Shown here: positions 38,214-39,205 of the stretch, piece by piece
Position numbering within the stretch: position 1 is the stretch's first letter
How the letters are laid out: each line of letters begins with the position of its first letter
Assembly: GCF_003334765.1 (NCBI RefSeq)
Contig: NZ_QOWT01000002.1
DNA length: 64,000 nucleotides
Strand: one strand, 5' to 3'
From: Escherichia coli
Lineage (GTDB): Bacteria > Pseudomonadota > Gammaproteobacteria > Enterobacterales > Enterobacteriaceae
Notes under the pieces: generated by a model
What the model was told of the DNA's origin: nothing
Database searches by the model: none
Seen by the model: only the letters and a program-made list of their open reading frames with translations
Position numbers and translations under genes: made by a program

Positions 38214-38468
38214 ATGGCTAGAGATGATCCGCACTTTAACTTCCGTATGCCTTTGGAAGTAAGAGAAAAATTGAAATTAAGAGCCGAGGCTAACGGAAGG
38301 TCAATGAACTCTGAGTTATTACAAATCGTTCAGGATGCACTATCAAAACCATCACCGATTACAGGATATCGCGACGAAGCTGAACGCTTGGCTGATCAGC
38401 AGGCTGAGCAGTTCAAGGCTATAGTGTTTGAGACACTTAAAAAGATTTATGAAAAGGATTTGAAATGA
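38214..38468 (+). CDS. mnt: Mnt repressor
   Basis: 84 aa, MARDDPHFNFRMP ribbon-helix-helix N-terminus. Confidence 0.9.
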   Translation: MARDDPHFNFRMPLEVREKLKLRAEANGRSMNSELLQIVQDALSKPSPITGYRDEAERLADQQAEQFKAIVFETLKKIYEKDLK

Positions 38469-38800
38469 GATTTCTATCACTGTTCTTGTTAGCAGTTGTC
38501 TCTTCTTCCAGTGCTGAGCTGCGCGAGCTTCAAACGGGTAATGACCTTCTTTACAACATTCAACAAGGTAAAAAGGGTGATGATTTTTCATCGCTTTACA
38601 TTACTGGATATTTGCGCGGAGTAACTGACTCATTGATACTAATTGGTTCTCTATGTCCTCCTGATGGCGTTGACATGTATCAATACACCGATATCGTTGA
38701 GAAATATCTAAACAAAAACCCAGAATCAAGAAATGAGAGTGCAGTTATACTAACCGCCCTAGCAGTAGGAAAAACATTTCCGTGCAAAAAGAATCAATAA
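38465..38800 (+). CDS. small secreted protein, unknown function
   Basis: 111 aa, signal peptide (LLAVVSSSSA), two Cys in mature part; start overlaps mnt stop. Confidence 0.5.
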   Translation: MRFLSLFLLAVVSSSSAELRELQTGNDLLYNIQQGKKGDDFSSLYITGYLRGVTDSLILIGSLCPPDGVDMYQYTDIVEKYLNKNPESRNESAVILTALAVGKTFPCKKNQ

Positions 38801-38815
38801 CAATAAGGGCTTAAA

Positions 38816-39205
38816 ATGAAATTGATTATAGCAATGGCTTTCCTTGTCTTCTCGTTTTCTGTCTCAGCAGAGTGCTGGGTCGTTGGAGATATGCACGGAA
38901 TAAGCTATTCAGAACGAAATAATTTTCAACCGGAAGAAGATGGTTTTAGTGGAACATTCATCATTAAGACAAACGGTGAAGATGCCAGTATCACATATTC
39001 TGGGACGGATGCGGGCGGCATGGCTTACAAAGCATTGTCTAAAAACTCCATCATTGGAATCGGCGCGAATGGCGAAACTCAACGAGTTATCGACTCATGG
39101 GTAATACATCCTAATGGAACAGTTTTAATGTCGAAAACCATTTCTGGTTATGGGAATATGGATTCAACCAAAGCTTTTGTTGGAAAAGTAAAAAGAAAAT
39201 GTTAA
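38816..39205 (+). CDS. small secreted protein, unknown function
   Basis: 129 aa, signal peptide (FSFSVSA/EC), Cys at both ends of mature protein. Confidence 0.5.
   Translation: MKLIIAMAFLVFSFSVSAECWVVGDMHGISYSERNNFQPEEDGFSGTFIIKTNGEDASITYSGTDAGGMAYKALSKNSIIGIGANGETQRVIDSWVIHPNGTVLMSKTISGYGNMDSTKAFVGKVKRKC

Follow-up and report, generated by a model that had tools for sequence, protein, structure and literature searches.

Genes of the Rap1a/Tai4 and Hex families between mnt and gene 16 in a P22-like prophage of Escherichia coli

Rap1a of Serratia marcescens (the 'Tai4a' class; PDB entries 3ZFI and 4BI8) and Tai4 of Agrobacterium tumefaciens (6IJE and 6IJF) are helical-bundle proteins of the Pfam family PF18602, made with a cleaved signal peptide, that give immunity to type VI secretion system (T6SS) effectors. 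In the periplasm, Rap1a forms a dimer and sterically occludes the active site of Ssp1, which is a T6SS-secreted peptidoglycan DL-endopeptidase (PMC3852654). Immunity genes without an effector gene have been described as well, such as those of the orphan Rap proteins of Cronobacter, proposed to protect against Tae4 effectors of other species (PMC3852654), and a Tai4-like gene in an islet of Salmonella Typhi, likewise proposed to act against foreign attackers (PMC7400221). The hex gene of phage 434 is co-transcribed with the repressor gene cI from PRM (PMC3564112) and was named, according to work cited in PMC3564112, for the 'heterologous exclusion' of P22 that Salmonella lysogens of lambda-imm434 show. 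In P22 itself, the slot between the maintenance repressor gene mnt and gene 16 holds sieA, whose product blocks DNA injection (PMC10883804, in which the strain list includes P22 variants changed in gp16 and gp20) and, to judge from its hydrophobic sequence, is probably an inner-membrane protein. Here we analyse a stretch of 64,000 nucleotides of E. coli DNA (contig NZ_QOWT01000002.1 of assembly GCF_003334765.1; "the window" below), in which a P22-like prophage carries two open reading frames (ORFs) in the sieA slot, one related to Rap1a and Tai4 and the other to Hex:

38465-38800, plus strand: ORF1, Rap1a/Tai4 family, 111 amino acids; signal peptide residues 1-17 (38465-38515), mature protein from E18, cysteines C64 and C107
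38816-39205, plus strand: ORF2, family of Hex and Sf6 gp38, 129 amino acids; signal peptide residues 1-18 (38816-38869), mature protein from ECW, cysteines C20 and C129

Both proteins come from known families, the first is already named by RefSeq, and orphan T6SS immunity is an established idea (PMC3852654, PMC7400221); a phage-borne Tai4/Rap1a protein in a prophage setting with a lysogeny repressor is an arrangement that we did not find described in the literature searched. The family membership of both proteins, their fold, export signals, and layout, the purifying selection on them and their distribution were obtained directly in this analysis. We read the two genes as part of an operon expressed in the lysogen that would provide orphan T6SS immunity through ORF1 and a periplasmic exclusion factor of the Hex type through ORF2, and we give this reading a probability of about 0.55.

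The original prediction, made from the letters of the sequence, had placed two co-oriented ORFs of 111 and 129 amino acids at these coordinates and had given both a signal peptide and paired cysteines. The list of ORFs agrees in coordinates, orientation and length; in both proteins a basic start is followed by a hydrophobic core, the residues at positions -3 and -1 are small, and there are exactly two cysteines in each. The prediction had recognised no family for either ORF, and this we can now correct, as ORF1 matches the Pfam family of Rap1a and carries a RefSeq name to that effect and ORF2 falls into phrog_2651 as a homologue of 434 Hex.

ORF1, an orphan member of the Rap1a/Tai4 family

ORF1 is a full-length member of the Rap1a/Tai4 family. 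The PF18602 profile matches residues 24-107 over model positions 1-90 of 90 (E value 1.3e-14, 54.9 bits) and is present in all 52 ORF1 relatives that have a precomputed Pfam match; the protein also matches phrog_3870, and the identical protein WP_001211768.1 is called 'Rap1a/Tai family immunity protein' in RefSeq. The AlphaFold model, with a predicted local distance difference test (pLDDT) score of 79, has helices at residues 28-36, 40-59, 71-84, 86-90, and 93-104. When this model was compared with the PDB by Foldseek, the top seven matches were all structures of Rap1a (4bi8_A and 3zfi, free and Ssp1-bound) or Tai4 (6ije and 6ijf), at a probability of 1.0, target-normalised template modelling (TM) scores of 0.63-0.70, and 26-28% identity, and the matches that followed dropped sharply to a probability of 0.25 or less.

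The features of an exported protein are shared by the family. The predicted signal peptide of ORF1, MRFLSLFLLAVVSSSSA, ends in the cleavage motif SSA before E18, and a hydrophobic N terminus is found in 52 of 52 family relatives. C64 and C107, the only cysteines of ORF1, are invariant in the family alignment and align with the cysteines of Tai4; they lie 43 residues apart, compared with 44 for C78 and C122 of Rap1a, the disulfide of which ties the loop after helix 2 to the C terminus (PMC3852654). In the model of ORF1 the pair appears to join the same two elements. The ratio of nonsynonymous to synonymous polymorphism (pN/pS) is 0.17-0.34, from a pN of 0.14-0.29 and a pS of 0.78-0.86 at which synonymous sites are saturated.

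No Tae4 or Ssp effector gene lies beside ORF1, whose neighbours are mnt and ORF2, and ORF1 is therefore an orphan. Since orphan members are recognised in the literature (PMC3852654), the missing neighbour means orphan status rather than exclusion from the family. Compared with Rap1a and Tai4, ORF1 differs in its low identity, in having neither an adjacent Ssp1/Tae4 gene nor a T6SS cluster, and in its place within a prophage, apparently under the mnt promoter. The described orphans of Cronobacter and Salmonella Typhi are chromosomal or lie in T6SS clusters, whereas ORF1 is on a temperate phage and tied to a lysogeny repressor.

We read the genomic context of nine kinds of ORF1 relatives, which are phage-borne or lie in prophage remnants, most of them directly after mnt. 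A further, more distant relative (39% identity over 60% of ORF1) is surrounded by chromosomal toxin-antitoxin genes, and no phage genes lie near it. P22-like prophages with a relative directly after mnt were seen in Serratia fonticola, Serratia sp. JSRIV002, Tatumella, and a second lineage of E. coli, and in 16 viral contigs of IMG/VR the relative comes after mnt every time; others stand amid runs of small genes, both in a phage-like contig of 82 kb and in phage DSL-LC04, and one lies in an integrase/primase island. In E. coli the gene is rare (26 of 5,426 complete genomes). That P22-like prophages from several enterobacterial genera carry a clade of Rap1a proteins in the slot behind mnt appears not to have been described in the literature searched.

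Two of these contexts deserve a closer description. The Serratia fonticola prophage has two Rap1a paralogues in tandem after mnt (stretch coordinates 6001-6715) that are 30% identical to each other, an arrangement that looks like a small immunity array in the mnt slot. In the chromosome of Buttiauxella agrestis, a Rap1a homologue (BLASTP identity to ORF1 60%; stretch coordinates 4816-6206) is intact and is flanked by a 57-residue fragment of mnt and a 61-residue fragment of gene 16, with metabolic genes following on both sides and two uncharacterised ORFs of 77 and 135 amino acids beside it; the fragments mark this islet as an almost fully decayed prophage in which the Rap1a gene has been kept.

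Two further observations concern the relatives of ORF1. In the Serratia sp. and Tatumella prophages, the gene-16-like ejection protein encoded next to the Rap1a gene has about 930 amino acids and an SLT lytic transglycosylase domain, compared with 613 amino acids for gene 16 here. A tblastn search also returned a Rap1a-like ORF in the 'Bacillus phage' vB_BspP_Dartukuta (MW749009.1), from which we conclude nothing. A 'putative outer membrane lytic protein' encoded in that genome makes the Bacillus host label doubtful, and the genome also has one very large gene (record coordinates 42617-55228); the match was dropped as an argument against a Gram-negative periplasmic role on account of the doubtful label.

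ORF2 and the export signals of the Hex family

ORF2 matches phrog_2651 with an E value of 2.3e-60 and is a full-length homologue of 434 Hex, itself nearly identical to gp38 of the Shigella phage Sf6 (29% identity over residues 1-129 and an E value of 8e-15 by BLASTP). The homologue is common to phages 434, Sf6, HK633, HK446, and Sf101, in which its gene and the end of the cI repressor gene overlap. Pfam has nothing for ORF2 or for 62 members of the Hex family, NCBIfam gave no match to ORF1 or ORF2, and searches of PDB sequences with ORF2, either as a single sequence or as a 62-sequence profile, gave matches at chance level only.

A profile search of 1.84 billion representative proteins yielded 140 members of the Hex family. 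The 121 full-length ones all have a hydrophobic N terminus, 120 have a cysteine just after it, mostly as ECW, and 113 combine the hydrophobic N terminus and the early cysteine with another cysteine among the last ten residues. On the strength of this pattern across the representatives, the family looks secreted, and its uniform secretion appears not to have been described in the literature searched. In ORF2, the predicted signal peptide MKLIIAMAFLVFSFSVSA ends in the cleavage motif VSA before ECW, and the AlphaFold model (pLDDT 85) is an all-beta barrel with C20 and C129 on its first and last strands; the signal peptide, the ECW at the mature N terminus and the C-terminal cysteine are all shared with 434 Hex. 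The ratio of nonsynonymous to synonymous substitution rates (dN/dS) of ORF2 is 0.26-0.32, which together with the pN/pS of ORF1 indicates that both cassette genes are real and under purifying selection.

RefSeq starts ORF2 at an internal ATG at 38891 (WP_002432306.1, 104 amino acids), by which the signal peptide is lost. We consider the longer start to be right, because the signal peptide is conserved in the homologues as a feature, though its sequence varies. Compared with the commoner allele, that of the Emek type, ORF2 shows no nucleotide similarity before about base 50 of the gene, which points to a mosaic joint inside the region that codes for the signal peptide (38816-38890).

Of the 5,426 complete E. 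coli genomes, 147 have an ORF2-like gene; for 122 of these 147 the match has 95-99% identity and, among the matches listed, starts at base 50 of ORF2. In IMG/VR it adjoins gene 16 in 70 of 79 loci, where about 30 nucleotides separate its end from that of the convergent gene 16, and ORF1 lies between mnt and ORF2 in only 15 of these ORF2 loci; mnt and the ORF2-like gene stand apart in most other prophages. Among E. coli prophages, the sieA slot seems to be filled most often by Hex relatives, a pattern for which there appears to be no description in the literature searched. Other members of the family lie after cI (434 and Sf6), in a cargo slot among tail genes by rexA and rexB, and, in an unrelated contig, beside a gene-16-like gene. 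The pair of ORF1 and ORF2 recurs in a second, diverged clade, with 65-67% identity for ORF1 and 48-50% for ORF2 and with other alleles of mnt and gene 16. As the pair recurs and its genes often occur apart, they can travel together and neither requires the other.

The relative beside rexA and rexB is a distant member of the family, encoded near a tape-measure gene (PF20155, TMP_3) in an unrelated phage-like contig (stretch coordinates 4559-5822), and its position fits a hot-spot for exclusion genes.

Layout, presumed expression and retention of the cassette

The window prophage is integrated at the tRNA-Arg (argW)/intS site of E. coli, beside dsdC. The immI module around the cassette is complete, and its features and those of the neighbouring genes are as follows:

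34548-36914, minus strand: tailspike gene, a neighbour of the immI module
37015-37893, minus strand: ant, antirepressor gene of immI that frames the cassette; an ORF of 292 amino acids that RefSeq, on an identical region, calls 'phage repressor protein/antirepressor Ant'
37895-37961, plus strand: sar antisense RNA; Rfam RF00262 over its full length, 65.6 bits against a gathering score of 43, E value 1.2e-12
37962-38123, minus strand: arc repressor gene; RefSeq 'Arc family DNA-binding protein' at the equivalent coordinates, with the Arc sequence visible in the ORF translation
38138-38158: mnt operator palindrome, ATAGGTCCAC / GTGGACCTAT, a perfect 10-nucleotide inverted repeat with a 1-nucleotide spacer that aligns with the annotated Mnt operator of P22
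38158-38186, plus strand: candidate promoter Pmnt, TTGAGA-17-TATCAT by consensus scan
38191-38163, minus strand: candidate promoter Pant, overlapping and divergent to Pmnt, TTGACA-17-TATATT by consensus scan
38214-38468, plus strand: mnt, maintenance repressor gene; 84 amino acids, 80% identical to P22 Mnt, with matches to Arc-like PHROGs
39230-41071, minus strand: gene 16, P22-type DNA ejection protein; an ORF of 613 amino acids, RefSeq 'DNA transfer protein' / 'P22-gp16 family phage DNA ejection protein'

Several features of this layout bear on the expression of the cassette. The region of Pmnt, Pant, and the operator is nearly that of P22, with three mismatches in the first 143 aligned columns (from 38110 to early mnt); all three are upstream of the promoter hexamers, the stretch of the hexamers is fully identical to P22, and the hexamers coincide with the annotated positions of the mnt and arc/ant promoters of P22. 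The TGA stop codon of mnt (38466-38468) overlaps the ATG of ORF1 (38465-38467) as ATGA, confirming an earlier claim that ORF1 starts within the mnt stop codon, with AGGA 8 nucleotides upstream of the ATG; ORF1 and ORF2 are separated by 15 nucleotides that include AAGGG. A sequence scan found no terminator between mnt, ORF1, and ORF2, and no antisense ORF with any support was seen over the cassette. The proposal in the original prediction that both genes are expressed from the maintenance transcript is therefore compatible with the layout, with its near-P22 immI controls and neither terminator nor gap, and we infer that mnt, ORF1, and ORF2 are probably transcribed from Pmnt in the lysogen.

A promoter-like site also lies within ORF1, 5' of ORF2 (38670-38697, TTGACA-16-TATCGT, 10 of 12 matches). 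It could give ORF2 a separate transcript, comparable to the sieA promoter in P22.

The order mnt-ORF1-ORF2, convergent with gene 16, matches the slot that in P22 reads mnt-orf59a-terminator-PsieA-sieA, also convergent with gene 16, so that the sieA position claimed for the two ORFs stands; the stop codon of gene 16 is 24 nucleotides past that of ORF2. SieA is expressed from the prophage, as ORF1 and ORF2 probably are. There is no sequence similarity to it, and unlike SieA, ORF1 and ORF2 have no comparable hydrophobic segments beyond their signal peptides and are predicted to be soluble periplasmic proteins. (A homology with SieA or orf59a was tried and rejected, the best E value in BLASTP of ORF1 and ORF2 against both P22 proteins being 4.2.) As for hex, its place resembles that of ORF2 in that each comes after a lysogeny-maintenance repressor gene, in the same orientation and with little or no space between, but hex follows cI, in immC, whereas ORF2 is downstream of mnt, in immI, and adjoins gene 16.

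The variability of the P22 'ant moron' is well known (PMC2629481). In the window, identity to P22 is lost in about the last 18 codons of mnt, and this divergence of the 3' end indicates a mosaic joint there. The G+C content of the cassette genes is 38-41%, compared with 45-50% in gene 16, as expected of acquired cargo genes.

The cassette is found at 99.5-100% identity in three states, namely a complete prophage in E. coli strain 631, the prophage of the window, and a prophage remnant of no more than about 9 kb in E. coli strain C, in which the cassette is intact. The window prophage is defective, its gene 20 being split into ORFs at 41068-41337 and 41280-42197 and its head, terminase, and lysis genes missing. 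Gene 20 is followed by a chimeric ORF of 460 amino acids (42208-43590) with an N terminus that is primase-like by eye, and beyond it by ORFs that by the same judgement resemble replication and cII genes. The retention of the cassette in decayed prophages, including the Buttiauxella remnant, suggests a benefit to the host apart from phage production, although recent deletions could also give this pattern.

Elsewhere in the window, a LexA-like cI repressor with a self-cleaving (S24-type) domain is encoded at 45420-46136 (phrog_4). An ORF of 122 amino acids (46156-46524) follows it after 19 nucleotides, is hydrophobic-looking and matches phrog_6534 over its full length; it may be a second cargo gene, co-transcribed with the repressor at a position like that of rexAB or hex.

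Possible functions of the cassette

Under the reading that we prefer, the cargo operon Pmnt-mnt-ORF1-ORF2 in the variable 'ant moron' would be expressed in the lysogen. ORF1 would leave the cytoplasm through the Sec pathway, lose its 17-residue signal peptide, form the C64-C107 disulfide, and fold into a small helical bundle like those of Rap1a and Tai4. By analogy with the pairs Rap1a-Ssp1 and Tai4-Tae4, it would bind an Ssp1/Tae4-type DL-endopeptidase delivered by the T6SS of a rival and sterically block its active site, so that the cell wall of the lysogen would be protected. ORF2 would be a periplasmic eight-stranded beta-barrel, with N- and C-terminal strands probably stapled by a disulfide, and in the periplasm it would most likely interfere with infection by other phages, a role suggested by its homology to a protein with the genetic hex phenotype and by the gene-16-adjacent slot that holds sieA in P22. 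Both assignments, that of a target to ORF1 and that of an exclusion activity to ORF2, are presumptive. The two ORFs had earlier been proposed as candidate periplasmic exclusion, defence, or inhibitor proteins. This holds insofar as ORF1 belongs to a family of periplasmic enzyme inhibitors and ORF2 is homologous to a protein named for exclusion, but the documented target of the family of ORF1 is a bacterial T6SS toxin and not a phage.

Several results weigh against this reading. The sequence similarity of ORF1 to the solved proteins is low, with a weak E value of 0.012 for Tai4 and a marginal one of 1.5 for Rap1a, and as immunity proteins are highly specific, the effector that ORF1 would counter cannot be named. 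No recognisable Tae4 gene was seen next to ORF1 relatives among the contexts read, and since the relatives so read lie, the distant chromosomal one aside, in phages or remnants, the clade may target a phage factor instead. Profile and structure searches, advised with the original prediction, placed ORF1 among Rap1a and Tai4 (Pfam, Foldseek), but the fold searches with ORF2 returned only uncharacterised relatives and generic small barrels. The defence models of PADLOC matched neither ORF1 nor ORF2, no clear terminator was found at the end of the presumed operon, and the only published biochemistry of Hex describes a cytoplasmic protein that blocks RecA-stimulated autocleavage of repressors (PMC3564112).

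The alternative that survives best, though we think it unlikely, is that the Rap1a clade, alone or with the Hex-like protein, inhibits a wall-degrading or envelope-crossing protein of an incoming phage, so that the cassette functionally replaces sieA. The model for such a role would be Spackle of phage T4, reportedly a small periplasmic inhibitor of the gp5 tail lysozyme and so, as ORF1 would be, a small secreted phage protein that inhibits a periplasmic cell wall hydrolase, in its case the tail lysozyme of a phage; the comparison is by analogy only, and we know of no homology of Spackle to the cassette proteins. The phage-bound contexts without Tae4 would fit this alternative, as would the presence of relatives in apparently non-temperate phages (the 82-kb contig and DSL-LC04), for which the long-term protection of a host from rival bacteria would matter less. 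The slot also adjoins genes of ejection proteins, with an SLT domain in the neighbouring gene-16-like proteins of Serratia and Tatumella, and ORF1 is tied to a Hex-like gene across diverged clades. Against it, no NlpC/P60-type enzyme was found among the virion and ejection proteins of these prophages, ORF1 and ORF2 are often apart (26 and 147 E. coli genomes, respectively), and the only documented targets of the Rap1a/Tai4 fold are T6SS endopeptidases of the NlpC/P60 type (PMC3852654). The bolder version, in which the phage-borne Rap1a clade is not T6SS immunity and forms with the Hex-like barrel a periplasmic anti-entry system against the wall-degrading and ejection proteins of superinfecting phages, we regard as slightly more doubtful. 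If true, it would make the T6SS immunity fold a phage-versus-phage weapon as well and would place 434 Hex in the periplasm instead of in a cytoplasmic role related to RecA.

Improbable in our view is the possibility that ORF2 acts in the cytoplasm as published for 434 Hex, blocking RecA-stimulated repressor autocleavage and thereby lowering spontaneous induction. Deletion of hex raised spontaneous, recA-dependent phage release 30-fold, and in vitro a 61-residue fragment of Hex kept the repressors of 434 and P22 from RecA-stimulated cleavage (PMC3564112); the window prophage for its part has kept the LexA-like repressor with its S24-type domain. The secretion signals that are so uniform in the family fit poorly with such a mechanism and point to the periplasm. 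The 158-amino-acid reading of Hex by Shkilnyj et al. (PMC3564112) is in the same frame as ours (434 hex lies in stretch coordinates 2429-2905), and its residues E43 and N103 are reproduced exactly. The 'sHex' fragment E43-N103 begins at the predicted mature N terminus of the 134-amino-acid protein, where TSANS is followed by ECW, and spans only about half the barrel. The source of the fragment was an insoluble pellet that had been dissolved in guanidine, and a signal peptide is never mentioned in that paper (PMC3564112). Moreover, the gene here follows mnt or adjoins gene 16 instead of following cI, and the cassette persists in remnants that are no longer inducible. The published cytoplasmic mechanism of Hex may therefore call for re-examination, given the N termini and cysteines of its relatives.

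Less probable again is an immunity array in which ORF2 would be a second orphan immunity protein, against a toxin that acts in the periplasm, and the slot a small acquired islet of interbacterial defence. Small secreted beta proteins are frequent among the immunity proteins that counter periplasmic toxins, and this was counted in its favour along with the tandem Rap1a paralogues of Serratia fonticola in the same slot and one distant ORF2 relative in a neighbourhood rich in toxin-antitoxin genes. None of the contexts of the ORF2 family that were read has a toxin gene of a T6SS, of contact-dependent inhibition or of a bacteriocin nearby, however, and the phenotypes reported for the Hex family concern phages only. 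That the two ORFs are functionless hitch-hiking or decaying filler is hardly credible, for although their low G+C content is typical of recent acquisition and ORF1 is rare in E. coli, the purifying selection on both genes contradicts it, and so do the conservation of export signals and cysteines across both families and the intact cassette in several decayed prophages.

Two other ideas were rejected. The weak guess of a lysozyme inhibitor, made earlier for ORF2, is unsupported, as it matches no family profile of the MliC/PliC type and the motifs SxSGAxY and YxxxTKG, which we take to be the conserved ones of those inhibitors, were not found. Nor do ORF1 and ORF2 look like an effector and its immunity protein, as ORF2 has a signal peptide and is modelled as a non-enzymatic barrel and the genes are usually apart.

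If ORF1 acts as its family predicts, P22-like temperate phages would spread resistance to contact-dependent killing as a trait of lysogenic conversion, and the carriage of phages would thereby be linked to bacterial warfare among Enterobacterales of the gut and the environment. The Hex-type protein, for its part, is a candidate periplasmic exclusion factor in the sieA slot of many E. coli and Salmonella prophages.

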